IMG/VR virus record: IMGVR_UViG_3300036045_000007
DNA: 64,000 bases
Direction: 5' to 3' (one strand)
Source of the DNA: a virus
Of the stretch, positions 7,104 to 51,268 are shown piece after piece (position 1 is the stretch's first letter; every line of letters starts with the position of its first letter). The notes under the pieces are model-generated. The model saw nothing but the letters and a program-made list of their open reading frames with translations. It ran no database searches and had not been told where the DNA came from. The position numbers and the translations under genes are program-made.

Positions 7104-7104
7104 G

Positions 7105-8334: not shown

Positions 8335-8337
8335 TAG

Positions 8338-8514: not shown

Positions 8515-8534
8515 GTGTTCGGAGGAGTCACCGG

Positions 8535-10110: not shown

Positions 10111-10112
10111 CC

Positions 10113-10664
10113 ATGAAGCGAATGGACTCCGGGCTATTGGTTTCCGATTTCTCGGACGTGCTCAGCCTCTTGCAACAACGCGGACGTTTCAAGTGGGAGT
10201 GCTTCAACCCTGACGGCTCATTGGCCTGGAAGGACGAGCACAAGAACGGTGCCACGACGAGCGGTCTGAACGACTTCCTCAACACGTACTTCGACAACTC
10301 GACCGCGAAGAAGAACACGTGGTACTTGGGATTGATCGACAACAGCGGCTTCACCAGCCTGAGTTCATCGGACACGATGAGCAGTCATACCGGCTGGACC
10401 GAGCTGACATCGTACTCGGAAGGCACGCGACCGCAGTGGACACCAGCAGCGGCGGCGGGCGGTTCGATAACGAATTCCTCGACGGTGAACTTCACGATCA
10501 ATGCGACCGTCGCCGTCAAGGGCGCATTCATCGTGTCGAACAACACGAAGGGCGGCACAACCGGCCAGCTCTTCGCAACTGGTCTGCTGTCCTCGTTGCA
10601 AAACCTGACGAATGGTCAGGTGCTCAAGCTGACGTACACCTGCCCACTGACGCCGACAAGCTGA
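10113..10664 (+). CDS. hypothetical tail-block protein
   Basis: 183-aa ORF 2 nt after the upstream stop. Ser/Thr/Asn-rich beta-type composition. Confidence 0.5.
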   Translation: MKRMDSGLLVSDFSDVLSLLQQRGRFKWECFNPDGSLAWKDEHKNGATTSGLNDFLNTYFDNSTAKKNTWYLGLIDNSGFTSLSSSDTMSSHTGWTELTSYSEGTRPQWTPAAAAGGSITNSSTVNFTINATVAVKGAFIVSNNTKGGTTGQLFATGLLSSLQNLTNGQVLKLTYTCPLTPTS

Positions 10665-10683
10665 TCCAAATTCGGGAGCCGAC

Positions 10684-10881
10684 ATGGACGAGAGTTTTTC
10701 GTCGGCCATCGAAGTGGGCAGCACCATCGCAGAGCAGGGTCAGCAGGTGCTATCCGCTATCCAGGTCGGCTCGACGTTCAACGTGCAAGACCCATTCGAG
10801 CAGATCAGCTCGCCGATCAAGGTCGGGGCCAAGTTCGACGGCACAAGTGGCGTTCTTGCTGGTGGCAGGTATCGCTATTAA
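10684..10881 (+). CDS. small protein made only of the SxIxVGSTF repeat plus RYRY tail
   Basis: 65 aa: FSSAIEVGSTI..LSAIQVGSTF..ISSPIKVGAKFDGTSGVLAGGRYRY. Same repeat and same C-terminal motif as the end of 2009-3190. Confidence 0.5.
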   Translation: MDESFSSAIEVGSTIAEQGQQVLSAIQVGSTFNVQDPFEQISSPIKVGAKFDGTSGVLAGGRYRY

Positions 10882-10944
10882 AAAAGATGGGAGCCTTCAG
10901 CACTCGCGACCGAAGGCCCCCGCGTGCGGAGGTCGGAGGGTATT

Positions 10945-14519: not shown

Positions 14520-15131
14520 GTGATGAATGTATTTCCGTGGCAGGCATCTCAGCTTGCGATGCAGAACCAGGGCGGCAGTTATGACATGCTCGCCAAGCAA
14601 AACCAGTGGAAGAATCAGGCACTGGATAAGCAGATCGCAGCGCAACAAGCGCCGCTGAACTGGGAGAAGGAAAAGTTCAACACGATCTGGCCTTGGCTTC
14701 AGGGGCAATGGGGCAAAGGCACAGGCGGTATGGGGCAGGGCCCGGCGGCGCCGCAGCTTCCCAGCTCGACCGTCTATTCTCCGCAGATGCAGCAGGAGAT
14801 GATTAACAGCGCGATCGGCCAGAGCCAGGGCCAGTCGGCAACGAACATCGCCAACATGCAGCAGCAGCTCGCGGGCAAAGGCTTCGCGGCCAACTCGCCG
14901 TTGGCACAGGCATTGGCCGGTCAGCAGCAGGCGGCGGCGATGGCCCAGGGCGCACAGATTCAGAGCCAGATTCCACAGCAGGTCGCTCAAGCGAACGCGC
15001 AGCAGGGCTTGGCGGTCGGCGGGCTGGCCAACCAACTCTACGGCCAGCAAATCTCTCAATATCTTGGGCAGTTGCAGAATCAGACTTCGCAGCAGAACGC
15101 CATGCTCGCTGCGCTGGCTGGCATGATCTGA
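14520..15131 (+). CDS. Gln-rich virion-block protein
   Basis: 203 aa, AGGAGG upstream, very Gln/Ala/Gly-rich (QQQLAGKGF, QQQAAAMAQGAQIQSQ). Reminiscent of internal or ejection proteins (inference). Confidence 0.5.
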   Translation: MMNVFPWQASQLAMQNQGGSYDMLAKQNQWKNQALDKQIAAQQAPLNWEKEKFNTIWPWLQGQWGKGTGGMGQGPAAPQLPSSTVYSPQMQQEMINSAIGQSQGQSATNIANMQQQLAGKGFAANSPLAQALAGQQQAAAMAQGAQIQSQIPQQVAQANAQQGLAVGGLANQLYGQQISQYLGQLQNQTSQQNAMLAALAGMI

Positions 15132-21714: not shown

Positions 21715-21743
21715 TTGACAGTCACCCTTCGCCCGATTACAAT
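21715..21743 (+). promoter_or_regulatory. sigma70-type promoter (TTGACA-17-TACAAT) of the moron
   Basis: TTGACA 21715-21720, 17-nt spacer, TACAAT 21738-21743. Preceded by AAAGTGGCGACAGTT (box at 21703-21712). Confidence 0.6.
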
Positions 21744-27461: not shown

Positions 27462-28120
27462 GCGACCCTCCGAGGAATAGTTAGGTGTCGATTCCGCAAG
27501 CCGCTGCTGACCAGCTCGTCGAAGCCGTCGGTGTGCAGGTACAACATGCCGCTGAACGTCTGGCATCCGTCGCAGACTTCGAGCGTGGCGCCGCTGTGCC
27601 GATCACCCGCACATAACTTCTTCGCCATCCAGGGCACCCACTCTCGAATGAATGGCGTGGTATACCGTGGCATCTGCAACGCCAGTTCGAGTGCGGTCTC
27701 GTTGAGGACCGGGATGAATCCCTCGTCCATCGCAACCGAAACCATGTGGTAGGTGTTGTAACCCAGGCGTTGGGTGAAGTGGCGATAGCCATGCGGCGAC
27801 CGCACCAGATCGGCGCCGAGGTACTTCTTCTTGCCTTTGAATCCGTCGTGCGTGTAACGCTCGACCCGGAACGGTCCGTCGAAGTGAGCGAAGAAGTTGT
27901 GGTCCCCGCTCAGGTGAGCACGTGTCGCTTTGATGCTGGTCTCCGGTCCGGCGACGGACAGGAGCATGATCTGTCGGTTGAACACGGAGATGGAGTCGGA
28001 CCTCAGTTTGAAGCTCGACTGCTCGCCGTTGACGGTGAGGGCATGGACGTTCCAGTCAACTCCTGTGCCCGCAACAGGAATTCCGCCGAACACGCTCGGC
28101 GAATGCGCATGATCGACCAT
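27458..28120 (-). CDS. hypothetical protein
   Basis: 220-aa ORF, no domain recognised. The first 118 nt overlap the recombinase 3' end, so the true start may be internal. Confidence 0.45.
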   Translation of the reverse strand: MVDHAHSPSVFGGIPVAGTGVDWNVHALTVNGEQSSFKLRSDSISVFNRQIMLLSVAGPETSIKATRAHLSGDHNFFAHFDGPFRVERYTHDGFKGKKKYLGADLVRSPHGYRHFTQRLGYNTYHMVSVAMDEGFIPVLNETALELALQMPRYTTPFIREWVPWMAKKLCAGDRHSGATLEVCDGCQTFSGMLYLHTDGFDELVSSGLRNRHLTIPRRVA

Positions 28121-28791
28121 TCTTCCCCCTTCGTGGTTAATAGGTTGTGATCCCGAAAGTGCTTGTGGATTTCAGCCCAACTGAATCCGGCCAAGTGTTG
28201 TTGCGCGATGTACGCCATCTGCTGGCGTTCGATTTCGTTCCGAATCCTGATCTTCGGTTTGCCAGGATTTCTGCGGCGCCAAAGGAAGCCGTAGCCAGCG
28301 TGTCCGTTGACCGCGTACCCTTGTGCGCTTGCCCATCGCTTGGCTTCTCGAATGCGCTCGGCGATGCGGCCCCTCTCGAACTCGGCGATGCACGCCAGCA
28401 CGTTCTCAATCAGCGTTTGGATGTAGTCAGGTATATCGCCCTCGAAGAAGGGCATGTCGAGCATGTGAACTTTGATGTCTCTCTTGGCCCACGACGACCG
28501 CATGACGAGGAAGTCTTCCAGCCTGCGGAAGCCACGGTCGAGCTTCATCACGATTACATGATCGCCATTCTCCAATCGCTTGTTGAGCGCTGCACCCGCC
28601 TTGCGTTCGAGGAACTGATACTTCGCAGCGGACACCTTGTCGATGAAGAAGTCACCCCACAGCAGCTTGCTCGCCCACTTGTCGGAGTAGTAGGTGAGGA
28701 TGCGATCCTTCTGGACTTCGATGCCGTTGATCTGCCGGTCCGTCGATTCACGCACGTACCCGTAGGCGATTGGCTTTCGATCTTCGCTCAT
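28003..28791 (-). CDS. small serine recombinase (resolvase/invertase family)
   Basis: N-terminal YGYVRESTDRQ catalytic-Ser motif. Resolvase-core pattern (GDHVIVMKLDRGFR, IAEFERGRIAERI). C-terminal HTH (GFSWAEIHKHF). Confidence 0.8.
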   Translation of the reverse strand: MSEDRKPIAYGYVRESTDRQINGIEVQKDRILTYYSDKWASKLLWGDFFIDKVSAAKYQFLERKAGAALNKRLENGDHVIVMKLDRGFRRLEDFLVMRSSWAKRDIKVHMLDMPFFEGDIPDYIQTLIENVLACIAEFERGRIAERIREAKRWASAQGYAVNGHAGYGFLWRRRNPGKPKIRIRNEIERQQMAYIAQQHLAGFSWAEIHKHFRDHNLLTTKGEEWSIMRIRRACSAEFLLRAQELTGTSMPSPSTASSRASN

Positions 28792-31341: not shown

Positions 31342-31407
31342 TGCGAAAACTCCAATCGGGCGAACGGCTAAAGACAACCGGCAACGTGCCGGTTCATCGC
31401 CAATGCT

Positions 31408-33937: not shown

Positions 33938-33938
<1 letters not shown>
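33765..33938 (-). CDS. small acidic protein (57 aa, not in ORF track)
   Basis: My translation: MKVSMESDEFGYEEFGDYDTYDEACAAINRLKSEARRLKDGIVRRFAVIPDGEEQCD. TGATG overlap with the upstream stop. Confidence 0.4.
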
Positions 33939-35118
<1,180 letters not shown>

Positions 35119-35122
<4 letters not shown>

Positions 35123-35289: not shown

Positions 35290-35493
35290 CTACTTCCCCT
35301 TTCGGCTTTGCTGCCACATCACGCACATGGGGCAGTACCACTTGCCCTTTACCTGAGTCCATCCGCCCAACTCGGCTTGCTTCCGTGCTTCGGCTGGTGT
35401 TGCGTCGTCACCAGTGGCGTCAGTTTCACAGTCGGGCGAGCGATCATCGTCCTCAGCATCGCATTCGATCCAGTAGTTTGCTACCAGTCCCAT
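35290..35493 (-). CDS. small acidic protein with C-terminal CxxC
   Basis: 67-aa ORF: ECDAEDDDRSPDCETD..WYCPMCV. Confidence 0.45.
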   Translation of the reverse strand: MGLVANYWIECDAEDDDRSPDCETDATGDDATPAEARKQAELGGWTQVKGKWYCPMCVMWQQSRKGK

Positions 35494-35705
35494 CAGTGAC
35501 TCCCTTCTACAACGATGTCAGGCGACGGTCCATGCACGAACTCCCGCGCCATGTCGCCGATCTCTTCGTGAAGCTCAGGATCGGCTTTACTCAGCCACAG
35601 TGCGTTGTACTTCGAGAACGCCCTGGTATCGCTAAGTAGTCGCCTGGCTCGTGGCGAGCGTAGAAAGCGCTCGGCCAGCATCTCCAATCGTTCATCTGCA
35701 TCCAT
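35493..35705 (-). CDS. hypothetical protein
   Basis: 70 aa from the ATG at 35705 (AAGGAGAG upstream). The track extension would translate repeat element a. Confidence 0.45.
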   Translation of the reverse strand: MDADERLEMLAERFLRSPRARRLLSDTRAFSKYNALWLSKADPELHEEIGDMAREFVHGPSPDIVVEGSH

Positions 35706-35721
35706 CACGGCTCTCCTTTCT

Positions 35722-35753
35722 GCGGCGCACGTAGCGCCGCCAACGTGGGCGAG
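35722..35753 (-). repeat. hairpin-plus-12-mer element, copy a
   Basis: + strand: GCGGCGC-ACGTA-GCGCCGC then CAACGTGGGCGAG. Directly upstream of the SD of 35493-35705. Confidence 0.6.
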
Positions 35754-35835
35754 ACCATCGCTTGTCACTTTGGTACGCTGGTCGGGATGAGATTCATATG
35801 GGCTGTGGTCCTCGAAGTAGTAGGATCATCGCCGC

Positions 35836-36018
35836 TTACCGATTGGCCTCATCATCGCTCGGATGAGCCTCATACTTGTCGAGCGCCAGCCACCGCGAGT
35901 GTAAGTCAGCACCGTAGGCCAGGCACGCTTCCTTGGTTTTGAACCGAAGAGCGTTGTAGCTCCCGTTGGTGCAGCTCTTCGTCTTGCACGCCAACTTCCA
36001 ACTCTGTGGGTCTGCCAT
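35836..36018 (-). CDS. hypothetical protein
   Basis: 60 aa from the ATG at 36018 (GAAAGGGG upstream). Confidence 0.45.
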   Translation of the reverse strand: MADPQSWKLACKTKSCTNGSYNALRFKTKEACLAYGADLHSRWLALDKYEAHPSDDEANR

Positions 36019-36053
36019 CGAGATACCCCTTTCGTGAAGCATCTCCACCGAAT

Positions 36054-36085
36054 GGTGTGCTACGAGCACACCCACCGTGGGCGAG
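36054..36085 (-). repeat. hairpin-plus-12-mer element, copy b
   Basis: + strand: GGTGTGCT-ACG-AGCACACC then CACCGTGGGCGAG. Intergenic. Confidence 0.65.
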
Positions 36086-36096
36086 CCAGCCGTGGC

Positions 36097-36408
36097 TCAA
36101 CCAGCGTCGATCAGCTCGACGTTGGCTCCTAAGAAGTTCCCCTCAATGGTCACTCGCTGGCCCTCGTCCATGATCCGCACCAATGCAACGGCGTCATCGC
36201 TATCACCTGGCGGGGTGATCGCCAGAAGCCAGTGATCCTTGCGCCGCTCAATGACAACGTGCGACACAAACTCAGGTGTCGCCGCGATGTTCAGGTCGAT
36301 GTAGGCCGCGCACTCGTCCCTCACATCGAGCTGGCACTTGTAGCGCGGCGGCTCTGGTTCACCATCGTAGGTGAGCAGGTGGAAGTCCTGCTTGATTGTT
36401 GGAATCAT
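36097..36408 (-). CDS. hypothetical protein
   Basis: 103-aa ORF, GGAGG upstream. Confidence 0.5.
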   Translation of the reverse strand: MIPTIKQDFHLLTYDGEPEPPRYKCQLDVRDECAAYIDLNIAATPEFVSHVVIERRKDHWLLAITPPGDSDDAVALVRIMDEGQRVTIEGNFLGANVELIDAG

Positions 36409-36587
36409 TGTGGCCTCCGATAGTCGCCGAGCAATGCCTCATGCAGATCGTCGCTCTTTGCACAGTACAGACAAATACCCCATTCCGCTGACGGCATGAT
36501 TGCTTCGCGGAAGTTGTCGAGGATCACTTGGGCCTCGTCTGCGGTATCAGCATCCTCGAACTCAGCAATGAGCACGAGCTTCACCAT
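36405..36587 (-). CDS. small acidic protein
   Basis: 60-aa ORF, ATGA coupling downstream. Confidence 0.45.
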   Translation of the reverse strand: MVKLVLIAEFEDADTADEAQVILDNFREAIMPSAEWGICLYCAKSDDLHEALLGDYRRPQ

Positions 36588-36591
36588 CTAC

Positions 36592-36861
36592 TCAACTCCC
36601 ATCCGCTTCGAGATACCTGCCCCCGTTGGTCGTGGCCCACTCCCTGGCTGTGCTCAACACGTGGCGAGGCAGTTCCCACAAGTCGAGCATCGCACCCTTC
36701 CCCTTCACGTCATACTGCCAGCGCTTGTCGCCGGTCTGCACGATCTCGGACCAATCACGGTCCTTGGTCATGCCGTTGCGGAACAGGAGCTTCGATCCAT
36801 GAAACTCCCGACGCACGTGGTCCCTCAGCTCGGCTGAGAGCCACAATCGAGCTTTGGTCAA
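36592..36861 (-). CDS. hypothetical protein
   Basis: TTG at 36861 overlaps the upstream TGA (TTGA). The 5' part of the track ORF 36592-37077 overlaps a better gene. Confidence 0.4.
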   Translation of the reverse strand: MTKARLWLSAELRDHVRREFHGSKLLFRNGMTKDRDWSEIVQTGDKRWQYDVKGKGAMLDLWELPRHVLSTAREWATTNGGRYLEADGS

Positions 36862-37223
36862 GCGTTGCTCCCTTCGTACTGCGGCTTCATCTTGCGCATG
36901 GCTTCGATGAGGCTCTTGAGTGATGCTACTTCCTCCCTGAACACTTCGTCGAGGTACTCGTCGCCTGAGTCGCTCTCGACGCCCCACAGCCCAGGGCTTT
37001 CGAGGTTGATGAATGTCCCAACGCCACTCTGGACGATCATGCACATGGCGCGGGCCCTGATACCGACGTAGTGCCACTGCCCGCGCTCGAATGCACGCTT
37101 CCGGGCGCCGGACAACTCCGTTCTCAGCTCGCAGTCGTCGTCAGGAAGTACCTCACGCTCGAACTGCACGTAGAATCCATCCTTCCGCTTGGTGTCGATG
37201 TGGGCGAACTTCGGTGTGCTCAT
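36858..37223 (-). CDS. hypothetical protein
   Basis: 121-aa ORF. SPGLWGVESDSGDEYLDEV segment. ATGA coupling upstream. Confidence 0.5.
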   Translation of the reverse strand: MSTPKFAHIDTKRKDGFYVQFEREVLPDDDCELRTELSGARKRAFERGQWHYVGIRARAMCMIVQSGVGTFINLESPGLWGVESDSGDEYLDEVFREEVASLKSLIEAMRKMKPQYEGSNA

Positions 37224-37432
37224 GCTGCACCCCTTTCACTCGGGCCCACGATCCCACACTGTTGCATCAGGTCGCGGAACATGGAGGTGGGTAGCACTCC
37301 GCCTGGCCAGTGCTGACGCTCGCGGTCCACGATCCGCCGCACTCGTTCAGTGGTCAGCCAGTTGGCCCGCTCAGTGCGAAACCCCATGATCGCGCGGAAC
37401 TCCCGCCTGTTTGGGCAGTAGTACCCATCCAC
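37220..37432 (-). CDS. hypothetical protein
   Basis: 70-aa ORF. Confidence 0.45.
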   Translation of the reverse strand: MDGYYCPNRREFRAIMGFRTERANWLTTERVRRIVDRERQHWPGGVLPTSMFRDLMQQCGIVGPSERGAA

Positions 37433-37435
37433 AGG

Positions 37436-37504
37436 TCACTCTCCCTTCGTCGTGTACTGCCACACGAAGATGGCAGCCACAGCCAGCCCTACCAGTAATT
37501 CCAT
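37436..37504 (-). CDS. 22-aa single-helix micro-protein
   Basis: MELLVGLAVAAIFVWQYTTKGE, with AAGGAAAAAAA immediately upstream of the ATG. Very short, so tentative. Confidence 0.25.
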   Translation of the reverse strand: MELLVGLAVAAIFVWQYTTKGE

Positions 37505-37522
37505 TTTTTTCCTTTTTTCCCC

Positions 37523-37544
37523 AATCCCGCAGCGCTGCGGGATT
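37523..37544. other. perfect 22-nt palindrome AATCCCGCAGCGCTGCGGGATT
   Basis: Read directly. Flanked by T-runs on the + strand (A-runs on the minus strand). Lies in the 209-nt ORF-free gap 37505-37713. Confidence 0.9.
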
Positions 37545-37713
37545 GCCTTTTCGCGCCGAAGAGCGCGCAGCAATCCCCTCCCGCGATTCGAGCTGCGTTG
37601 CCGAACCACGGTCCCCGCACCATGCCCGACGCATGGCCGATCCGCGCACGCTGAGCGCACACCCAGCGCAGGCGGATAGGCCAGCGCTCCGCACTGGCAT
37701 CTACCCGGTGGCC

Positions 37714-38691
37714 TTACGCCACTTTCGCCTTCTCACCCACAACCGCCTTGGCCGCTTTCTTGCTGCCGTCGATCATGGCCTTGCTCAAGTACGCCAGCGA
37801 GTTCCGGTCGTTGGCGTTCACCAAACCCTGAGCCAGCGAATCACCCATTTCCTGCGTCCACCGCAGTATCGTGCCAAGCTGCACGAGGACCGCACAGTGC
37901 GTGGGACCGCTCAGAAGGGCCTTGATCCGCTCCGCAGCCTCGCGCGGCGACTCAGGCTCGGCTTGGGGCTTCTGGCCCTCGTCCTTCTCGCCCTTGGGCT
38001 TGCTGGCACGCTCCTCCTTGGCCTTCTCCTTGTCCGCCCCCTGCTCAGCGGTGAGCTTCCCCGTTACCCGCCGCACGGCAATGCTGGTCTCGGCAGCGGT
38101 CATCACTTGCGTGCCGTCCACCAACGCGGCGAACATGGCTTGCAGCTCTCCCACCTGCTCGGCGGTCAAGTCCGGCTTGAACTCCCAGTGCTCAGGCTTG
38201 GCGTCCTTCCCGCTCTGCCGCTTGAGCGTGGTCTCGAACGGGCGAATCTGGCCGATGCCCAACGCCTTGCACCCTTCCCGGCCATAGACCTCGGCGACAC
38301 CATGCAGCCGCAAGCAATCCTCCACCTGCGGAGTGTCGCTCTGGCCGCACACGTCGTCCAGCTCGCGTTGCAGCCGATTCACCCCTGCCGCACGGCTCTC
38401 ACGCCTGATCTTGGCGTCAGTCTCCCCACGCAGCCGATGGCCGAGGTACTTCGCCGCCGCTTTCCCGATCCAAAGCAGCGACACCGTGCGGGCCTTGGCG
38501 TAGTTCCCCGCGTGCTGACGCAGGGCTTCCAAGTCCCGCTCCAGCAGCTCGGCACGCTTGGCATCCGTCTCCGGTGTCTGCTCCGGTGGCGTACCCTCGG
38601 TTTCCAACGCCTGCTCAGCGTTGACGGCGGACGCACCGCCGGTGTTGCCAGCCAGCGCGGACGCTGGACCGGCCACTGTAGTAGTGGTCAT
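37714..38691 (-). CDS. hypothetical Lys/Glu-rich protein
   Basis: 325 aa from the ATG at 38691 (GAAGGGAG upstream). Charged KEKAKEERASKPKGEKDEGQKPQ linker. Confidence 0.5.
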   Translation of the reverse strand: MTTTTVAGPASALAGNTGGASAVNAEQALETEGTPPEQTPETDAKRAELLERDLEALRQHAGNYAKARTVSLLWIGKAAAKYLGHRLRGETDAKIRRESRAAGVNRLQRELDDVCGQSDTPQVEDCLRLHGVAEVYGREGCKALGIGQIRPFETTLKRQSGKDAKPEHWEFKPDLTAEQVGELQAMFAALVDGTQVMTAAETSIAVRRVTGKLTAEQGADKEKAKEERASKPKGEKDEGQKPQAEPESPREAAERIKALLSGPTHCAVLVQLGTILRWTQEMGDSLAQGLVNANDRNSLAYLSKAMIDGSKKAAKAVVGEKAKVA

Positions 38692-38729
38692 TGCGCAGAA
38701 TCTCCCTTCACGCATCCCCGCACTACGCT

Positions 38730-38761
38730 CAGGCACTTCGGGTGCCTGCACCGTGGGCGAA
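38730..38761 (-). repeat. hairpin-plus-12-mer element, copy c
   Basis: + strand: CAGGCAC-TTCGG-GTGCCTG then CACCGTGGGCGAA. Preceded by GCACTACGC, as in copy d. Confidence 0.65.
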
Positions 38762-38769
38762 CATCCGCC

Positions 38770-38925
38770 TTACCGGGCGACGACTGCCCTACGCTCACGC
38801 AGGAATCCCCGCAGCGTTGCCGTACCCCGCACTGGACGTCGTACTACCGTGGCGTGCGGATTCTCCCGCCCAGACCGCAGCCAGTCCGCCACCTGCCGCA
38901 CGCGCACTTTCTCCGTCGTGTGCAT
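38770..38925 (-). CDS. small Arg-rich protein (51 aa)
   Basis: ATG at 38925 lies 7 nt after GGAGAG. MHTTEKVRVRQVADWLRSGRENPHATVV... Flanked by element copies c and d. Confidence 0.35.
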   Translation of the reverse strand: MHTTEKVRVRQVADWLRSGRENPHATVVRRPVRGTATLRGFLRERRAVVAR

Positions 38926-38958
38926 GGAACTACTCTCCACGCACCCTGGCACTACGCC

Positions 38959-38990
38959 GGTGGCATACGATGCCACCCACCGTGGGCGAA
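38959..38990 (-). repeat. hairpin-plus-12-mer element, copy d
   Basis: + strand: GGTGGCAT-ACG-ATGCCACC then CACCGTGGGCGAA. Preceded by GCACTACGC. Confidence 0.65.
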
Positions 38991-39017
38991 GGGCGATGAT
39001 CTTACCGCACGCGATCC

Positions 39018-39221
39018 CTACACGCTGGCCTTGCCGCTGTAGTACCAGCCCACACTTCCGGTGCTGAACTCACGCGGCACCAGCGTCAGCGTCATGCCGT
39101 TGCCGTCCGTGAACGTGCGTGGCTTGGTGTTGTCCGCCAGCCACTTGGCCCTCTGCTCTGGCGTCCACGTCTTGCTGTGGACCACGGTGAGCTGCGACTG
39201 TGCTTGTACGACCTGTGCCAT
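39018..39221 (-). CDS. hypothetical protein
   Basis: 67 aa from the ATG at 39221. The C-terminal FSTGSVGWYYSGK motif is seen in many small bacterial and phage proteins (from memory). Confidence 0.5.
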   Translation of the reverse strand: MAQVVQAQSQLTVVHSKTWTPEQRAKWLADNTKPRTFTDGNGMTLTLVPREFSTGSVGWYYSGKASV

Positions 39222-39302
39222 GACCATAACCCACCCCTTACACCGCTGCACCATACCGCACCGCGTAGCACGGCGATTCGCGGATTTTTTCGCCGTCGCA
39301 AA

Positions 39303-39331
39303 ACCCTAGCTCGCAAAAAATCCGCTGTCAA
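39303..39331 (-). promoter_or_regulatory. sigma70-like promoter (TTGACA-17-TAGGGT) bracketed by an 11-bp inverted repeat
   Basis: Minus strand reads TTGACAGCGGATTTTTTGCGAGCTAGGGT. The inverted repeat GCGGATTTTTT (39280-39290) / AAAAAATCCGC (39315-39325) flanks the -10. Confidence 0.5.
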
Positions 39332-39434
39332 ATTTTCGGTCGAATTTTTTTTGCGGACCATTAGAGCCGCGCCCGCGCGATCCTCCTACTCGCGAACACC
39401 AATCCTTGCGCGCCTGCACGCACGCCCGCGTTCG

Positions 39435-39485
39435 TACCACACGCGCGTATCTTACCACGCCCACGCATACCCGCGCACGCGATCT
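39435..39485. repeat. three imperfect tandem ~15-18-nt units (iteron-like)
   Basis: TACCACACGCGCGTATCT / TACCACGCCCACGCA / TACCCGCGCACGCGATCT, read directly. Lies in the 549-nt ORF-free region. Confidence 0.35.
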
Positions 39486-39803
39486 CGCCAAACCCTATAC
39501 CTGCTCAGTGTTACCAATACCCCATAATCGCTGTATGTCGTAAGTCGTTGGTGGGTATGGTAGATGCGTCACGTACATGCCAATTTCTTGGCACGTTGGC
39601 AGCGATATTCACAACAGACAGGACATAAGCCTATGGCGTGTAAGGAGTTACTAAAACCCTACCCGCCCGGCCCCATCAAACCCTCCCAGGTCTCCGGGTA
39701 CACCACCACTGATTTTTAAGCCATTATCGCTCGCACCAGGACAGCGTAGGCCGCGTTTGGATTCAGAAAACGGACGGGGAGGCGTTTGAGAATTCGGGTT
39801 CGT

Positions 39804-40085
39804 CTAATGCGATTTCAGTGCCCTGGAAGTGGCATGTGGGCTTTTTACTGGCCAGGGTGGGCCAGGGTGTGTGAAAGGTGGAGTGAGCCCTTTGAGGTAG
39901 AAGACGTTTTGAGCGGTGAGGTTGTGATCGAGAACGAGGTCGAGCATGGCTGGTGAGACGACGATGAAGCCGTCAGCGGATCGGGCTGCGAACTTGGAGC
40001 CGGTGAGGTCGGAGTGACCGCAGGCTGGGAAGGTGGGAGCTGAGACGCCGGTGAGGAGGTCGAGCAGGTTTTGGGTAGCGTCCAT
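39804..40085 (-). CDS. hypothetical protein
   Basis: 93 aa from the ATG at 40085. Third codon positions mostly C, which looks coding, but there is no clear SD and no motif. Confidence 0.4.
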   Translation of the reverse strand: MDATQNLLDLLTGVSAPTFPACGHSDLTGSKFAARSADGFIVVSPAMLDLVLDHNLTAQNVFYLKGLTPPFTHPGPPWPVKSPHATSRALKSH

Positions 40086-40538
40086 GCTTACTGCCGATGT
40101 GGGTATGGAGAAATGGAAGAAGATGAGGAAAAATGCGCACCGTCCCCCTCTTGCGTCCGCCTCCGTGGTCCTCGTCCTCCTTGCGAGAGGGGTTGTCCAG
40201 TTCACTGTCTTTGGGGGTGGGTGGGGGTGGTTTTGACTCCACTTTTCCCTACCGCGCGCTCACCGCTGAACAAGTGTCAAGGATTAAACCTCGCACTGGA
40301 GTATCGAGTCCAGGCTGGCCTGGTCGCACCCTCTTGGCCAAATGAGGACTTTCCACCGTGCCCTGCCCTTCGGAGATGCGGTTTCCCGAGTCTACCGACT
40401 GGCGCCTCTGGCCTCACCCACGCGGGAGTTCACAACCGCCTATAGTTGGGGATCAGCGTGGGGTTCCCCTTGGGTTGTGGCCGATGAAGTTACCCCTTCG
40501 GTCGGCGGGATGATTTTAGGCTGGAGGGTGGGTTGGCG

Positions 40539-40682
40539 TCAAGCCTTCTCGAATTTCCAGTAACCGCCGTAGGCGCCGCCTTTGGTGAATGTGATGGTGC
40601 CTTTGTCGCCAGCGACGGCGGAATGATCGCTGTCGGTGCCGATGAGGAAGTGCCCTTCGCCGTCTTCATCGACGACGATCAT
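40539..40682 (-). CDS. possible small protein (47 aa, not in ORF track)
   Basis: My translation: MIVVDEDGEGHFLIGTDSDHSAVAGDKGTITFTKGGAYGGYWKFEKA. ATGA overlap with another possible 43-aa ORF (40680-40810). No SD. Confidence 0.25.
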   Translation of the reverse strand: MIVVDEDGEGHFLIGTDSDHSAVAGDKGTITFTKGGAYGGYWKFEKA

Positions 40683-40937
40683 GGTGTGAACTCTGACGCC
40701 TCGAATGGACTCCCATCGTCACATCGGACATCAAGCACCTTGGCGGACTTTTTTGTACCGTAAGGCCAGGTACGTGTTTTCATGGTTCGGAGATCGCGAT
40801 GGGTGGTCATGTGATTGGCGGCTCGTTCAGGTGTCCGCCGTCTCGCCAGCCGGTGATCCAGCGACGATGATTTCGAGAAGGCGGGCGGTTGTGGTTGCCT
40901 GGACGCGGGCGTCTTGTTCCATGTTATATTGAGTTGG

Positions 40938-40966
40938 GTGAAAAATTGGCGACAGTTTGGTAAGAT
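40938..40966 (+). promoter_or_regulatory. sigma70-like promoter (GTGAAA-17-TAAGAT) with GGCGACAGTT box in spacer
   Basis: GTGAAAAATTGGCGACAGTTTGGTAAGAT. Same -35 / 4 nt / box / -10 layout as promoters 35093-35122 and 48786-48813. Confidence 0.45.
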
Positions 40967-41143
40967 GGTGGGTGATGGCCGGGCAAAAGCGTTTGGAGAA
41001 ATTCCGTGGGGAGATGTCTCCTCCGTATGCTCACCGCGAGCGATAGGCGCGGGAAAAGTATCCCCGCCCGGCCATCGGAGCCTGGTTGCCCGGATACCGC
41101 CACGAGCCTCGCGAGAGGGAAAAGGCGGCACAACGCTCTGGCG

Positions 41144-41186
41144 CTCCCCCCGAAAGGGGAGTTGCCCAGCACCGGGCTCCTTTTTT
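41144..41186 (+). terminator. terminator/attenuator-like hairpin with U6, with competing upstream hairpin
   Basis: CTCCCC(CCGAAA)GGGGAG hairpin at 41144-41161. GGGGAG can instead pair in GGA..GCCC(AGCACC)GGGC.TCC, followed by TTTTTT at 41181-41186. The RBS GGAGG starts at 41192. Confidence 0.4.
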
Positions 41187-41204
41187 CATTTGGAGGCACG
41201 AGAT

Positions 41205-41459
41205 ATGCGGCGTAGTGAACCTGGTGACTTCGGCGTGGTCATGGACAAGGAGGAGTTTCGCCAGCGGATGCTCAGCGAGTTCGACGGGCAGTTCAAGGGG
41301 AAGATGAGCCTCGACGAGCTGCTTCTGCGACCGCGAGTGGCTTTGTGGTTTTGCGACTTCGTTCGGGAGAAGAACCGCTGGTGGGATCTGCCCGACGACG
41401 TGATCCTGCGGTCGATTATGGCCGCGAGAAAGAACCCTGCGTTGAAGAGCGGTGTATGA
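41205..41459 (+). CDS. hypothetical protein
   Basis: 84 aa from the ATG at 41205 (GGAGG 8 nt upstream). The in-frame upstream extension of the track ORF 40914 looks non-coding. Confidence 0.5.
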   Translation: MRRSEPGDFGVVMDKEEFRQRMLSEFDGQFKGKMSLDELLLRPRVALWFCDFVREKNRWWDLPDDVILRSIMAARKNPALKSGV

Positions 41460-42294: not shown

Positions 42295-42716
42295 TTCGGT
42301 TGTCTCCTTCTCTTCCGCTTCGCCTCGCGGCAAAGTTCGATGTACCGCTTCACCCAGGGCCCGTAGTGCCGGTGCTTCTGGTTCATCCGCCAAACGTCCT
42401 TCATGCGGTACTCGGTGAAGTCCTCGATGCGGAGCTGATCGTAGAACTCGTCGATGTCGCGACGAACGCCGATCTTCACCCCGCAGTGAATGCCCTTGTG
42501 AAACACCTGGTCGTTCAGCTCGATCCAACCGTGGGCGAACGGTTCACCTGGAGCCTCCTCGCCGTACTTCGGCTGCTCGTCGGGCACATGGGCAATGCCG
42601 TGAACGAGTAGCAATCGCGGCTCGTGCATCATGGCCGGTTCGAGATCGACGAAGTATTCGATCAGCTCGAAGGCGTCGTCGAAACAGGTTCCAGTCGGGT
42701 AGACGGTGCTACTCAC
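42291..42716 (-). CDS. hypothetical protein
   Basis: GTG at 42716 lies 5 nt after AGGAGG. 141 aa. Contains a coding copy of ACCGTGGGCGA at 42529-42539. Confidence 0.5.
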   Translation of the reverse strand: MSSTVYPTGTCFDDAFELIEYFVDLEPAMMHEPRLLLVHGIAHVPDEQPKYGEEAPGEPFAHGWIELNDQVFHKGIHCGVKIGVRRDIDEFYDQLRIEDFTEYRMKDVWRMNQKHRHYGPWVKRYIELCREAKRKRRRQPK

Positions 42717-42867: not shown

Positions 42868-43101
42868 TCACTGCTTTTTCCATCCCGGCGCTCCTTGCGC
42901 TTGTAACAAGTTCTGTGCTCTCAAGGCGACGATGCCTCCCTCTCTCGCGATCTCGTCCATCAACAGCCACACATCGGTCAGCGCGTCAGAGACTCGCGTG
43001 ATCTCATCATTCAACAGCTCGATGTCAGCGTGTGCCGACGCCGACCGCCAGCGTTGGCGAATGGTCTGGATGTCCCCCTCCGTCAACACCTTTTTGCTCA
43101 T
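42868..43101 (-). CDS. hypothetical protein
   Basis: 77-aa ORF, ATGA coupling upstream. Confidence 0.45.
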   Translation of the reverse strand: MSKKVLTEGDIQTIRQRWRSASAHADIELLNDEITRVSDALTDVWLLMDEIAREGGIVALRAQNLLQAQGAPGWKKQ

Positions 43102-43412
43102 GGTACTTTGCCCTTCGATACTCTCGCGCGTACTTCTTTGCCGCCGTCATCGGACTTCCGAACAGCTTTTGTAGCTCGACCATTTCCTTGTGGTCCGCTC
43201 GGCTGCACCGGGTGTTCATCTTCAGGCTCCGCTCGTTGAGGAATACCGTTCTTCTCCATGAATTCCATGAGATCACTGCGATAGACGCGGCGATGACTCG
43301 ACCCTGGGATCAGCCAGCCGATCAACATGCCGTTGTTGATCCACCGGATCACGGTTTGCTGGCCCACGCCGAGGAAGCGAGCAACGTCGCCGGTCGTCAT
43401 CACGTCCTTCAT
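43098..43412 (-). CDS. excisionase-family HTH DNA-binding protein
   Basis: MTTGDVARFLGVGQQTVIRWINNGML..HRRVYRSDLMEFMEKNG is a typical excisionase/MerR-like HTH. Confidence 0.65.
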   Translation of the reverse strand: MKDVMTTGDVARFLGVGQQTVIRWINNGMLIGWLIPGSSHRRVYRSDLMEFMEKNGIPQRAEPEDEHPVQPSGPQGNGRATKAVRKSDDGGKEVRARVSKGKVP

Positions 43413-50185: not shown

Positions 50186-51268
50186 ATGGCTGATTGGAGC
50201 CGTATCGTCAACACGACCATCAAGAATTACATTCGAGAGGTCGAAATTGACGTGTTGCGGAATCGAAAAGTCCCGGCAATGTTGAAGGCAAAGGGCCGCA
50301 TCACCTTCAACTGGTCAGGGGACGGCATGGATTGGAAAGTGCGCTTCAAGCGTGCTCCCATGATCGGCTACGCCGACACCGATACTTTGACGTTCGCGCG
50401 TCTGAATCGGTGGAAGACCGCGCAGCTCGATTACCGTGGCTATGCAACCACGGACAGCATGACCAAGCAAGAGCGGCTGAAGAACAAGTCCACCGAAGCG
50501 ATTGTGAAGGTCTACGATGAGATCACTCGAAATCTCGTCGAGGACATGGAAGATCAATTCGGCGACGAGTTCTACATTGACGGCAACGCTGCTGGAAACT
50601 CGAAGCGACTGCACGGTATTGAGTCGTTCTTGGGCGATGGCGGCGTAAGCTCAGGCGGCTTCATCGCTCTGCCATCGGATGAATACGCTGGTATCAACAC
50701 GGCTCTCGGCACTTACGGTGGAACGTGGACAGGTACTTCGAGCAACTGGCCTAAGGCGACGGGCGATGGCCACTTCGACTTCTGGTCGCCGTTGCTCGTT
50801 GACTACACCGACACCGCTTGGGCCGCGACAACCAAGACGTGGCCGAATACCTGCGAAGAGGCGATGCGGTTTGGCCTCATCTACTCGCGCAAAAACAAGA
50901 GCAAGCGCGGTGCGGTTGACTTCATCATCCTTGATGAAGAGCTGTACCGTCAGTTCTTGGACAAGATCAGCACGAAGGAACGTATCATCGTTGATCGAGG
51001 CGACAAGAACAGTCTCGTCTCCCTCGGCTTCACCGATGTCACGAACTTCGACGGCGCCGAAGTGACCACGGAGTACGGTCTCCCGGCCAACATCGGCTAC
51101 GGATGGAACATCGACCAGATGGAACTTCGGTCGCAACAGGGCCAGTTGTTCGTCCCTGAAGGGCCCGATTATGACATCGCGACGAAGAGCTGGCGATTCT
51201 CAATCGACTTTTTCGGCAACATGGTCTTCCGTCCGCGTTACTTCCTGAAGTTCAAGGCGTACACCTAA
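50186..51268 (+). CDS. major capsid protein
   Basis: 360 aa, AAAGGAG upstream, follows the scaffold-like gene and is followed by a hairpin. Size and N-terminal pattern fit phage coat proteins. No search was run. Confidence 0.65.
   Translation: MADWSRIVNTTIKNYIREVEIDVLRNRKVPAMLKAKGRITFNWSGDGMDWKVRFKRAPMIGYADTDTLTFARLNRWKTAQLDYRGYATTDSMTKQERLKNKSTEAIVKVYDEITRNLVEDMEDQFGDEFYIDGNAAGNSKRLHGIESFLGDGGVSSGGFIALPSDEYAGINTALGTYGGTWTGTSSNWPKATGDGHFDFWSPLLVDYTDTAWAATTKTWPNTCEEAMRFGLIYSRKNKSKRGAVDFIILDEELYRQFLDKISTKERIIVDRGDKNSLVSLGFTDVTNFDGAEVTTEYGLPANIGYGWNIDQMELRSQQGQLFVPEGPDYDIATKSWRFSIDFFGNMVFRPRYFLKFKAYT

Follow-up and report, generated by a model that had tools for sequence, protein, structure and literature searches.

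Four copies of a short element, in which a linear box adjoins a hairpin, recur in a window of 64,000 nucleotides from an uncultured phage (the whole stretch analysed, IMG/VR record IMGVR_UViG_3300036045_000007). These copies raise the question of whether they represent a selected signal and what such a signal might do. The box–hairpin signal is real and looks selected, while any function given to it is putative. We prefer, tentatively and from the sequence, to read the four copies as a possible intercistronic RNA "punctuation" module in one early polycistronic transcript, made by the host RNA polymerase from a promoter at 39331.

Position and anatomy of the elements

All four copies described in the earlier note are present at the coordinates it gave, and according to the gene map each lies between minus-strand genes, as it had stated.

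Element a, 35722-35753, minus strand in gene sense; plus strand GCGGCGC-ACGTA-GCGCCGC + CAACGTGGGCGAG
Element b, 36054-36085, minus strand in gene sense; plus strand GGTGTGCT-ACG-AGCACACC + CACCGTGGGCGAG
Element c, 38730-38761, minus strand in gene sense; plus strand CAGGCAC-TTCGG-GTGCCTG + CACCGTGGGCGAA
Element d, 38959-38990, minus strand in gene sense; plus strand GGTGGCAT-ACG-ATGCCACC + CACCGTGGGCGAA
Box of d, 38978-38990, minus strand; mRNA sense TTCGCCCACGGTG, 28 nt past the stop codon of the first early gene
Hairpin of d, 38959-38977, minus strand; GGTGGCAT-CGT-ATGCCACC, 8 bp, RNA dG -11.6 kcal/mol, 33 nt to the ATG of a 51-aa ORF
Box of c, 38749-38761, minus strand; TTCGCCCACGGTG, 9 nt past the stop codon of the 51-aa ORF
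Hairpin of c, 38730-38748, minus strand; CAGGCAC-CCGAA-GTGCCTG, 7 bp, dG -10.5 kcal/mol, 38 nt to the ATG of a 325-aa ORF
Box of b, 36073-36085, minus strand; CTCGCCCACGGTG, 12 nt past the stop codon of a 103-aa ORF
Hairpin of b, 36054-36072, minus strand; GGTGTGCT-CGT-AGCACACC, 8 bp, dG -11.5 kcal/mol, 35 nt to the ATG of a 60-aa ORF
Box of a, 35741-35753, minus strand; CTCGCCCACGTTG, one mismatch against the other copies, 83 nt past the stop codon of the 60-aa ORF
Hairpin of a, 35722-35740, minus strand; GCGGCGC-TACGT-GCGCCGC, 7 bp, dG -14.7 kcal/mol, followed immediately by the Shine-Dalgarno sequence (SD) AGAAAGGAGAG and then a start at 35705

In mRNA sense, all four copies share the order stop codon, YTCGCCCACG(G/T)TG, a perfect 19-nt hairpin with zero spacer, 13-38 nt, SD and ATG, and the layout proposed earlier for the transcript (linear box, hairpin, SD of the next gene) is correct. 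The invariant box is 12 nt long (UCGCCCACGGUG), being the same in b, c and d with a single change in a; likewise, b, c and d carry the exact 11-mer ACCGTGGGCGA, as claimed, and a differs from it by one mismatch. The box lies 32-57 nt from the start codon, with a separate SD in between.

Departure from chance and covariation of the stems

The motif ACCGTGGGCGA, with at most one mismatch, has 10 matches in the window against 1.9 expected, and none of 100 shuffles reaches 10. The window has only about 25 distinct perfect hairpins whose stem reaches 7 bp or more; of these, four adjoin the box without a spacer, each exactly 19 nt long. A covariance model was built from copies a-d, a check that had been advised, and its scan of the window returned exactly four copies at 44-48 bits, while the next match scored 14 bits. 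Rfam holds no family matching the element.

The stems differ in sequence and remain paired throughout. All of the 28 stem cells are Watson-Crick (28/28) against 61% in shuffles, none of 500 shuffles reaching this value, and pairing falls to 18-21% when the partner column is slid by one. Six of the seven stem pairs change on both sides in the four-copy alignment, and the six positions that differ between the hairpins of b and d make up three fully compensated pairs; the stem changes are thus compensatory, as had been claimed, with covariation known within the four window copies alone and no cross-genome covariation. The hairpin loops (CGU, CGU, CCGAA and UACGU in RNA) are not conserved, and the flanking 20 and 30 nt show random-level identity for most copy pairs. 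Selection is on pairing and not on the sequence of the stem, and the geometry is fixed. Sequence constraint in the box only, together with hairpins that are all paired, constant at 19 nt and joined without a spacer, is the signature of a single-stranded recognition site on a structure-only helix. None of the 30 stem pairs is G-U and all are Watson-Crick, which is mildly unexpected for an RNA helix and fits a DNA-level role equally.

Several candidate identities were rejected. The elements are not intrinsic terminators, as the tails read AGAAAGG, AUUCGGU, AGCGUAG and GGCGUAG and none is in the terminator-scan list. Promoter scans found no sigma70 promoter within the elements, and searches turned up neither a phage RNA polymerase nor a sigma factor that might use them as promoters. 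The suggested likeness to REP elements did not hold, since REP copies have a common palindrome whereas the palindromes here differ, and there is no GTAG motif.

The early unit and its small ORFs

The placement in an early operon proposed in the earlier note is borne out, as a sigma70-type promoter at 39331 heads a unit that holds all four elements.

39303-39331, minus strand: sigma70-type promoter, TTGACA-17-TAGGGT, with a 7-bp hairpin beginning 6 nt past the -10 hexamer
39018-39221, minus strand: first gene of the unit, 67 aa, from a family of small proteins encoded by phage contigs and by MAGs of Myxococcota, Planctomycetota and Acidobacteriota
38770-38925, minus strand: 51-aa ORF with 12 Arg, between d and c, also called by the gene caller behind locus L007
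35836-36018, minus strand: 60-aa ORF between b and a, with homologues 59-61% identical in two otherwise unrelated phage-like contig types
35093-35122, minus strand: the promoter of sigma70 type that comes next downstream, TTGACA-18-TACAAT, agreeing with the consensus at 11 of 12 positions

Every copy has the orientation of transcription and falls in the one unit between promoters 39331 and 35122; past the latter (35093-35122), the covariance-model scan of the window found no box-hairpin copies. The other gene junctions of the unit, which have no element, overlap or abut. The copies form two pairs, d and c bracketing the 51-aa ORF and b and a bracketing the 60-aa ORF. The former has no family match, and tblastn among cultured phages finds none. 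The only homologues of the latter lie in unrelated phage-like contigs, and its recurrence in two unrelated contig types marks it as a mobile ORFan. Moreover, one of these homologues (in L289) is bracketed by two near-identical promoter cassettes. At two of the eight consensus promoters of the phage, a perfect hairpin starts 4-6 nt past the -10 hexamer, compared with 3.3% at random positions, and one promoter of the relative L003 is likewise followed by a hairpin at 4-6 nt.

The 67-aa first gene served as the anchor for fetching related early operons. The earlier note had proposed looking for the element in related genomes, and in related loci of about 1.9 Mb (86 + 80 + 7) none carries the box-hairpin; as relatives with the same first early gene do without it, the element is dispensable for the phage group. 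Homologues of L002 genes probably account for the 3.2 kb of contig that lies beyond the window.

Comparison with known systems

Promoter-early stem-loop (PeSL) cassettes of T4-like phages resemble the elements in filling the whole gap from stop codon to SD/ATG in early plastic regions, in joining a conserved linear motif to a stem-loop of variable sequence, and in bracketing small ORFans, whose shuffling they are proposed to mediate, much as two pairs here bracket two small ORFs of which one is mobile (PMC2839356, PMC4122927). However, in a PeSL the linear part is a sigma70 promoter, which the box is not; PeSL stem-loops terminate, whereas a U-tract is missing from the hairpins here; a genome carries PeSLs by the dozen, against four copies here; and the distance between their stem and motif is not fixed, while here the spacing is zero and the hairpin always 19 nt (PMC2839356, PMC4122927). 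The two ORF-bracketing pairs, one of them around a mobile ORF, point to PeSL-like cassette behaviour.

The SAS/ESAS repeats of mycobacteriophage cluster K and the cluster A stoperators are similar in that a 13-bp asymmetric repeat occurs in one orientation, in the non-structural arm only and by gene starts, with inverted repeats beside some copies, and is lineage-specific and absent from the host (PMC3203893). In SAS, by contrast, the SD is part of the repeat, which lies 3-7 bp from the start codon, while the box is 32-57 nt upstream with a separate SD; the inverted repeats of ESAS are conserved in sequence with little support for hairpin formation, whereas the present stems vary and co-vary; and SAS and stoperators number 11-30 copies per genome, against four here (PMC3203893). 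The analysis of SAS/ESAS was in silico only in a 2025 study (PMC12699233).

Hairpin promoters of the N4 virion RNA polymerase are also short (5-7 bp with a 3-nt loop, against 7-8 bp with a 3-5-nt loop here), their stem bases are free to vary if paired, and conserved bases adjoin the hairpin upstream of early genes (PMC4496689). Nevertheless, N4 requires a giant virion polymerase, while no ORF in the window exceeds 1035 aa, and it conserves loop purines and -8G within the hairpin, whereas the conserved part here is wholly outside, on the upstream side (PMC4496689). The RNase III sites of T7 early genes likewise lie between cistrons as structured sites in an early polycistronic mRNA made by the host polymerase, and leave hairpins at mRNA ends; their duplexes, conserved in sequence and with an internal loop, span about 20 bp or more, whereas the helices here have 7-8 bp, less than RNase III needs, and adjoin a single-stranded box. 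N4 hairpin promoters, T7 RNase III sites and PeSLs were accordingly rejected as identities, since the elements fail the defining features of each.

Proposed function and alternatives

Among the likenesses suggested in the earlier note, an RNA-processing site is plausible and is the one we favour. In the punctuation reading, the active form would be RNA. The 19-nt GC-rich hairpin, constrained in pairing and size only, would fold once transcribed and present the invariant box at its 5' foot, where a putative sequence-specific factor acting in trans (phage or host, protein or RNA) might read the box-hairpin junction and set an RNA end, most likely through endonucleolytic cleavage. The downstream cistron would then start with a protective 5'-terminal stem-loop, and the expression and stability of the small ORFs would thereby be uncoupled from those of their neighbours. 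As a secondary effect, the repeated identities of 13-40 nt might act as portable linkers between which small ORFans are gained or lost, comparable to the PeSL cassettes of T4-like phages. That the module both fixes a hairpin-capped mRNA end and serves as a PeSL-like linker in ORFan shuffling is suggested with low confidence. The phage places hairpins at transcript 5' ends, which counts for punctuation and rests on two of eight promoters. Against it, an invariant site of 12 nt exceeds what is typical for an endoribonuclease, and in long-context folds the box is not consistently predicted as single-stranded and an alternative fold out-competes hairpin b. The missing G-U pairs, the relatives that lack the element and the want of cross-genome covariation weigh on the same side.

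Extended to a function, the nut analogy of the earlier note would make the elements recruitment sites for processive antitermination, with the box as boxA and the hairpin as a structure-only boxB, where a small basic phage protein, such as the 51-aa Arg-rich ORF, would load onto RNA polymerase via the nascent RNA. In rrn leaders, boxA is a conserved 12-mer and the boxB hairpin is conserved in structure only, which agrees with this analogy. As in lambda nut and rrn leaders, nascent RNA from an early operon transcribed by the host polymerase carries first a conserved linear box of about 12 nt and then a hairpin, and the 51-aa ORF directly downstream of the first copy d recalls lambda N after nutL. 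Yet the analogy fails on inspection and this function is unlikely: on direct comparison the box resembles no boxA, it has no spacer to the hairpin, the loops are unconserved, four sites lie in one 4-kb unit rather than one per operon as in lambdoid phages, no N-like protein was found (no N-family match in Pfam or PHROGs), and the terminator scan finds no sense-strand intrinsic terminator in the unit that would need to be overridden. It is rather unlikely, too, that the elements are internal non-sigma70 promoters used by the host polymerase with a putative phage factor, in which the box would occupy about -12 to -1, transcription would begin with the hairpin's first base, and the hairpin would form a 5' cap. 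This agrees with the hairpins placed past the -10 hexamer at two phage promoters and one in L003, with the promoter cassette on either side of the L289 homologue, and with the G that starts three of the four hairpins; but a phage RNA polymerase, a sigma factor and a known activator were all undetected, invariance up to -1 is typical of single-subunit polymerases and not of host holoenzyme, the window scan shows the motif missing from every other operon, and there is no conserved -35-like partner upstream.

A site acting in DNA is rather improbable as well. Here, a phage DNA-binding protein would bind the asymmetric 12-13-bp box and silence or time the first early unit, the hairpin being a separate attenuator or stabiliser, by analogy with cluster A stoperators or the C1 operators of P1. 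The single orientation that the motif keeps with respect to transcription, its place in short intergenic regions in the non-structural arm, the absence of G-U pairs, an HTH_17 protein encoded at 43098-43412, and operator-like repeats common in the early intergenic regions of related contigs (a 26-bp palindrome in L002, GGGGGACCG repeats in L289) would fit such a site. It leaves zero spacing, the constant hairpin and selection on pairing unexplained, however, a roadblock at the box would stall the polymerase ahead of hairpin transcription, there are just four copies in one unit, and no repressor candidate was identified. It is quite improbable that the repeats are recombination linkers or scars that regulate nothing themselves and mark joints of small-ORFan cassette insertion, with hairpins as incidental transcript stabilisers. 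In favour are the single small ORF within each pair, the demonstrable mobility of the 60-aa ORF, the partial box copies upstream of b, c and d, and the relatives that lack the element, but scars would not hold 12 nt invariant beside 19 nt of random identity that are perfectly paired and equal in length, and b and d are separated by three compensated pair changes. Sibling small RNA families show a conserved seed with a structure-only hairpin, and each unit might be released as a short RNA in which the box is a seed pairing with a host or phage target, or a sponge titrating a host RNA-binding factor, with the hairpin as stabilising 3' structure. Indeed, ACCGTGGGCG at 9692-9701, in codons 3-6 of a plus-strand late gene, is a 10-bp perfect complement of the box; this match is within chance, given 1.9 near-matches expected per window, and the elements have neither a U-tail nor a promoter of their own, which makes small RNAs very improbable.

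Shared flanks, partial copies and isolated matches

Copies c and d both carry GCACTACGC directly before the stem, as claimed, and both have, read as mRNA, a further TGCGTG block that follows GCGTAGTGC after five bases.

38692-38729, minus strand: downstream block of c, (A)GCGTAGTGC-N5-TGCGTG-SD, common to d
38926-38958, minus strand: downstream block of d, (G)GCGTAGTGC-N5-TGCGTG-SD, a paralogue of the c block

Over the 30 nt that follow the hairpin, c and d agree at 21 positions, against only 5 of 19 within the hairpins themselves. The flanks of c and d are thus alike but their hairpins are not, whereas the hairpins of b and d are alike but their flanks are not, a pattern that fits exchange among copies. 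The partial box copies immediately upstream of b, c and d read GCCACGG, TCGCCCGG and TCGCCCT.

Two isolated matches reported earlier exist, each one base away from its reported position. The coding copy of the 11-mer, reported at 42529-42539, is at 42528-42538, inside a gene and with no hairpin adjoining. The hairpin with an ACG loop, reported at 31375-31393, is at 31376-31394; it lacks a box and resembles a weak terminator.

Structure of the box-hairpin elements

Four elements, each a linear box joined to a hairpin, are present in the early region of this phage, and rereading of the sequence from 35400 to 39300 returned all of them as the earlier note had given them. On the plus strand, every element is a perfect inverted repeat followed directly by CA(A/C)CGTGGGCGA(G/A); the repeats of a and c have 7 bp and a 5-nt loop, those of b and d have 8 bp and a 3-nt loop, and all are 19 nt long. 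In the mRNA sense, the layout is a stop codon, YTCGCCCACG(G/T)TG, the 19-nt hairpin, a gap and an ATG with its own SD, with the following distances and lengths of the intergenic region (IGR):

Element d, 38959-38990, minus strand: stop codon to box 28 nt; hairpin to ATG 33 nt; IGR 92 nt
Element c, 38730-38761, minus strand: stop codon to box 9 nt; hairpin to ATG 38 nt; IGR 78 nt
Element b, 36054-36085, minus strand: stop codon to box 12 nt; hairpin to ATG 35 nt; IGR 78 nt
Element a, 35722-35753, minus strand: stop codon to box 83 nt; hairpin to ATG 16 nt; IGR 130 nt

The remaining gene junctions of the stretch abut or overlap. The 11-mer core of the box, ACCGTGGGCGA, occurs 10 times in the window with at most one mismatch, where 1.9 would be expected, and none of the shuffles gives as many. 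Four of the approximately 25 distinct perfect hairpins with a stem of at least 7 bp in the 64-kb window adjoin the box with zero spacer. A covariance model made from the four copies (A2 and R1) and run over the window with filters off recovered only these copies, at 44-48 bits; the next best hit, at 14 bits, is a coding copy of the 11-mer without a hairpin (42505-42542). A candidate fifth copy at 37650-37674 (family D4) reached just 8 bits and was rejected.

The compensatory stem changes claimed by the earlier note are borne out, as every one of the 28 cells is a Watson-Crick pair, compared with 61% of cells after column shuffling (0/500 shuffles reach 28/28), both sides change in six of the seven stem pairs (four copies, one genome), and pairing collapses to about 20% when the 3' partner is slid by one column. 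All 30 stem pairs are Watson-Crick with zero G-U, which mildly favors DNA-level constraint or young copies over an old RNA helix. From a to d, the template-strand loops are ACGTA, ACG, TTCGG and ACG, and the mRNA loops UACGU, CGU, CCGAA and CGU. The hairpins alone are predicted to be stable (-10.5 to -14.7 kcal/mol) and also to fold in short contexts; once the context is long and GC-rich, the predicted folds often pair the box and replace hairpin b by a competing structure. Thermodynamic folding speaks neither for nor against a role of the element in RNA punctuation. The note had also pointed to a hairpin with an ACG loop and to a coding copy of the 11-mer; both exist, each one base away from where it had placed them, at 31376-31394 and 42528-42538, respectively.

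The box is 11-13 of 13 identical in every pair of copies, and the four palindromes are mutually 5-13 of 19 identical. For c and d, the hairpins agree at 5/19 positions, which is the random level, and the 30 nt downstream at 21/30, with a shared block, GCGTAGTGC-N5-TGCGTG-SD, downstream of the hairpin in both. For b and d, the hairpins agree at 13/19 positions, the 6 differences being 3 fully compensated pairs, and the 30 nt downstream at 8/30. Moreover, the base before TCGCCC is C in a and b, and T in c and d. Because segment identities differ by pair (the flank for c-d, the hairpin for b-d), relationships among the copies are mosaic, and modules seem to have been exchanged between copies. The box is under strong sequence constraint, while the hairpin is constrained in pairing and length only. 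Judged by these patterns in the sequence, the element is real and clearly selected; it is a four-copy feature of a single genome.

Genomic and transcriptional context

The window covers 64.0 kb of a 67.2 kb (67,224 bp) source contig, and gene order in relatives suggests that it wraps around a circular or permuted genome; the 3.2 kb beyond the window appears to match genes of L002, a capsid-protein relative, and one of these runs into window ORF 39-818. The phage carries a major head protein (50186-51268, PHROG 9953), an internal virion protein family match (10924-12966), a YadA-like fibre and a lectin-fold protein. Its non-structural arm, on the minus strand from approximately 48.4 to 23.5 kb, contains genes for an SNF2 helicase, a DUF6094 methyltransferase, DUF932, DUF4120 and DUF6948 proteins, a second methyltransferase and a small serine recombinase; the sole recombinase seen is of the serine invertase/resolvase type (262 aa, 28003-28791). 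The host is probably a member of Myxococcota or Planctomycetota, since the genome loci with relatives of the first early gene are MAGs of Polyangia/Myxococcales, Planctomycetota and Acidobacteriota.

Scanning with the pattern TTGAC[AG]-N16-18-TAnnnT gave seven consensus promoters on the minus strand (48813, 40542, 39331, 35122, 31970, 24937 and 24654), and all four elements lie within one unit, from 39331 to 35122. This unit runs from the promoter at 39331 through the 67-aa gene, element d, a 51-aa Arg-rich ORF, element c and a 325-aa ORF to a structured gap of 210 nt, which is followed by six small genes, element b, a 60-aa ORF, element a, three small genes and the promoter at 35122. In two of eight consensus promoters, a perfect hairpin begins 4-6 nt past the -10 hexamer, compared with 3.3% at random positions; these are 24654-24580 and 39331-39255 (minus strand), and one more is found in L003, another capsid-protein relative, at about 470-389. 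Primary transcripts from the strong promoters at 24654 and 39331 would start with a stem-loop, and, because two of eight promoters and the one in L003 carry such an early hairpin, hairpin-capped 5' ends may be a design habit of the phage.

Several other features were observed in and around this unit. The 210-nt gap past the 325-aa gene (37504-37713) has several GC hairpins, including CAATCCCGCA-GCGC-TGCGGGATTG, which on the plus strand has CCTTTT after it and resembles an antisense terminator there, and an A-rich leader, GGGGAAAAAAGGAAAAAAATGG, leads from the gap into a 22-aa hydrophobic ORF (37436-37503). About 1.8 kb without a convincing ORF (approximately 39340-41200) separates the two leftward operons and includes a promoter of its own, TTGACG-18-TAAAAT at 40542; it shows a sign switch of GC skew, is empty in Rfam, and may be a long non-coding RNA, an origin or a regulatory region. 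In addition, a 268-aa early protein has a long N-terminal Pro-Val/Thr-Val repeat, which is encoded by a tandem array at 34478-34777 (within ORF 33938-34744, minus strand) with 14 overlapping copies spaced 12 or 18 nt from start to start.

Search for the element in related sequences

Megablast of window positions 34-41 kb against 50,697 phage records gave no match, and protein searches with the 325-aa and 67-aa early proteins gave no homologue beyond the source contig; the 67-aa protein recurs in only one further contig, Logan L007, which shows 100% identity across 8.5 kb and therefore offers no variation. Capsid-protein relatives (L002-L006) were found at 63-66% identity, two of which, L003 and L006, hold the start of a homologous early operon, recognised by its first small gene, with tightly packed genes and no box-hairpin. 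An alignment of the first early gene (A1) was used to fetch 80 metagenome and 80 genome loci. The exact box is absent from the 80 genome loci and occurs once, without a hairpin, in the 80 metagenome loci; a box followed by a hairpin is seen in these loci only as chance-level cases with two mismatches, and no fetched locus has at least three non-overlapping hairpins of different stems that share a flanking 9-mer. The covariance-model check reached a maximum of 22.7 bits over 1.86 Mb of fetched loci and of 12.5 bits in L288-L294, contigs with homologues of the 60-aa ORF. A scan of IMG/VR for a 14-mer (TCGCCCACGGTGGG) returned more than 120 single chance hits, none with a hairpin after it, and a literature search on the box sequence returned unrelated primers only. 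The element is private to this genome among all sequence searched, and the fetched loci are a negative control for the box-hairpin pattern.

The first early gene (39018-39221) itself encodes a member of a widespread family of small proteins that share the motif (E/K)F(S/Q)(T/S)GSxGW...GK (loci L128-L287). More than 200 copies were seen, some from soil and freshwater metagenomes and others from MAGs assigned to Myxococcota, Planctomycetota and Acidobacteriota, and the gene is covered by no Pfam or PHROG family. As a separate observation, L002 contains a perfect palindrome of 24-28 bp (core ACTTCGGCTCATTTGAGCCGAAGT, up to CAACTTCGGCTCATTTGAGCCGAAGTTG) that occurs at least four times, at 1969-1994, 2531-2556, 9921-9944 and 15010-15037, and resembles an operator for a dimeric regulator.

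Small-ORF cassettes

The elements form two pairs with one small ORF each, d and c around the 51-aa ORF (12 Arg), and b and a around the 60-aa ORF. Homologues of the latter, 59-61% identical, are present in two contig types, P0004 (L288-L290) and P0005 (L291-L294), and tblastn of all window ORFs against these contigs confirmed them and gave the 60-aa ORF as the only shared gene. By such gene content, it is a horizontally mobile ORFan. In L289, its homologue is flanked by two near-identical sigma70 promoter cassettes, gaattcttcgggaccgggCTTGACA...TA(C/G)AATacgagtgtggg, and most small genes of the L289 early region are likewise preceded by one, with GGGGGACCG/CGGTCCCCC as its inverted repeats. In the window, a different kind of cassette brackets the same ORFan.

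In T4-like phages, the IGRs of plastic early regions are filled by conserved cassettes of promoter and stem-loop (PeSLs), which recombine and have ORFans between them (PMC2839356, PMC4122927). The elements resemble PeSLs in that an intergenic stem-loop with a conserved motif brackets ORFans that differ between phages, but a PeSL has a sigma70-type early promoter inside the cassette, whereas none was found at the four IGRs by promoter scan, by the TTGAC[AG]-N16-18-TAnnnT scan or by manual reading for -35 and -10 hexamers. The L289 cassettes (7031-12861, plus strand; GGGGGACCG...gaattct...CTTGACA-N17-TA(A/G/C)(G/A)AT, with the inverted partner CGGTCCCCC) are arranged like PeSLs, although this uncultured phage is not one of the T4 group. 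The gaps beside the homologues of the 60-aa ORF in L289 (9698-10000) and L292 (10241-10524) contain T-arm-like strings, GGCGGGTTCGATCCCCGC and CTCGGTTCGACTCCGAG, while ARAGORN finds no tRNA; the strings may represent 3' fragments of tRNAs, for instance remnants of attachment sites.

Possible function of the element

The element shares its logic with the closest known kinds of signal, which are PeSLs, nut sites, SAS/ESAS, stoperators, N4 hairpin promoters and T7 RNase III sites, and lacks at least one defining feature of each. We tentatively read it as an RNA punctuation module, which is possible rather than probable: the box would fix the site of an RNA end, most probably by cleavage, the hairpin next to it would cap the downstream mRNA, and PeSL-like linker activity would be a by-product. 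If a hairpin serves to present a single-stranded recognition site, one would expect just such a 12-nt invariant motif held at fixed geometry on a structure-only helix, and intercistronic transcribed RNA is the most natural setting for such a site. The box-hairpin units are located exactly where a promoter-less cistron begins. T7-type RNase III sites have a duplex of at least about 20 bp with an internal loop, whereas the helices here have 7-8 bp and can be extended by 3 bp only, in b, c and d only. The GC-rich hairpins also lack the U-tract of intrinsic terminators, having the tails AGAAAGG, AUUCGGU, AGCGUAG and GGCGUAG; a terminator scan listed hairpins at 31404-31377 and 31676-31646 and none of the four elements, which have no U-tract on either strand, and terminator-like hairpins elsewhere in the phage have short T-tails. 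Rfam gave no hits over the window at gathering thresholds, and a permissive search (E up to 10) of 35500-41300 gave three chance-level hits (E of at least 4), none on an element, and no ribozyme.

Among the rival explanations, a nut-like antitermination site ranks first, which the layout and the adjacent Arg-rich ORF favor, but the boxA and boxB features that define nut are lacking. The boxA consensus (NusB/NusE) is CGCUCUUA and the rrn boxA is UGCUCUUUAACAA, whereas the box here, UCGCCCACG(G/U)UG, bears no resemblance to boxA by direct comparison; similarly, the boxB loop of lambda-type sites is conserved for N protein, whereas here the loops vary and the stems are unrelated. The Arg-rich ORF and nine neighbour proteins gave no N-like match in Pfam or PHROGs, which is weak evidence as N proteins diverge fast. 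A factor-dependent promoter of non-sigma70 type ranks second. The template strand of N4 hairpin promoters has a conserved -11 purine, -10G and -8G (PMC4496689), whereas the triloop centres here are C and no stem base is conserved except one G-C pair; moreover, the N4 virion RNA polymerase has about 3500 aa, whereas the largest ORF in the 64.0 of 67.2 kb covered has 1035 aa and no polymerase motif.

A stoperator-like DNA site ranks third. Like cluster K SAS and cluster A stoperators, the box is asymmetric, about 13 bp long and repeated in single orientation in the non-structural arm; the coding copy at 42528 is on the same strand as the four boxes, and all five lie within 35.7-42.5 kb. However, SAS contain the SD and lie 3-7 bp from the start codon, and SAS and stoperators number 11-30 copies per genome (PMC3203893), whereas the box here ends 32-57 nt before the start codon, has a separate SD and is present in four copies. 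Recombination scars alone rank fourth. The earlier analogy to REP-like repeats does not hold, as REP/BIME are numerous imperfect palindromes that hardly differ from one another and carry a GTAG-type tetranucleotide at the 5' side, whereas the palindromes here differ, have no GTAG and number only four in the window; no Y1 transposase annotation (RAYT) was seen among the proteins scanned, which are part of the ORFs. Integron attC sites differ as well, being long imperfect hairpins with R''/L'' and L'/R' cores that work with IntI, whereas here the hairpin is perfect, has 19 nt and leaves the box outside. An sRNA or sponge ranks fifth. Trans-acting complements of the box in the window match over just 8-10 nt, at chance frequency, and were set aside.

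It is unlikely that the module is a cis-acting target for a type of RNA recognition not described before, specific for both sequence and shape and operating in phages of Myxococcota or Planctomycetota, in which a factor would read the 12-nt single-stranded box at the foot of the structure-only 19-nt hairpin and then cut at the box or modify the transcribing polymerase. If true, this would be a new way of punctuating operons, or a new signal akin to nut, whose portable copies travel with ORFan cassettes. Intergenic repeats of phage early regions, such as nut sites, T7 RNase III sites, PeSLs, stoperators and SAS/ESAS, are informative on transcription control and genome plasticity. What is unusual here is the fusion, at fixed geometry, of a linear box that is strictly invariant to a hairpin whose pairing is kept although its sequence is free, in copies that bracket small ORFs, one of which, to judge by its homologues, demonstrably moves between unrelated phages; unusual too is the uncultured phage itself, whose probable hosts are Myxococcota or Planctomycetota, groups in which the control of phage genes is almost unexplored. 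If a box-reading factor were found, the element could serve as a compact (about 31 nt) portable RNA/DNA tag for operon engineering and could provide a concrete case of regulatory cassettes and ORFans travelling together.

Other readings and sequence signals

Several further readings were considered and rejected. No phage RNA polymerase or sigma factor is apparent (no giant ORF, no DxDGD motif, no Pfam/PHROG match, no T7-like or N4-like polymerase). For a sigma54 promoter, GG-N10-GC would have to take a different offset in each of a, b and c and has no fit in d, and a sigma70 or ECF reading of the box with its upstream sequence has no consistent -35. Coding sequence was dismissed since c and d, being 229 nt apart, are out of frame in a long antisense ORF, and a frameshift signal since the box is not slippery and is located past stop codons. 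A DGR target (IMH and hairpin) has no template/variable repeat pair, and no reverse transcriptase was seen among the proteins scanned; for an oriT or HUH nick site, neither a relaxase nor a Rep was seen. A perfect 10-nt complement of the box, ACCGTGGGCG, is present at 9692-9701 (plus strand) in codons 3-6 of a plus-strand late gene, the GTG start of which overlaps with the end of ORF 9065-9688 at its stop codon; the complement could be an antisense target, but the match is within chance expectation.

The sole plus-strand consensus promoter, at 21715-21743 (TTGACAgtcacccTTCGCCCgatTACAAT), has in its spacer CCCTTCGCCC, the same 10-mer as the start of the element d box with the 4 preceding nt, probably by chance. 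Three minus-strand promoters, at 48813-48786, 35122-35093 and 31970-31942, have the common spacer motif T(T)GGCGACA (TTGACAgtTTGGCGACActtagTAAGAT and similar) and may form a class of promoters that contain their own operator; in the unrelated L289, one promoter has TTGGCG at a similar spacer position. As well, the tandem minus-strand promoters 24937-24910 and 24654-24627 are separated by about 280 bp, and their spacers, AACGCCAGCGTT and TAACGCTGACGTTA, are palindromes that resemble operators placed between -35 and -10.
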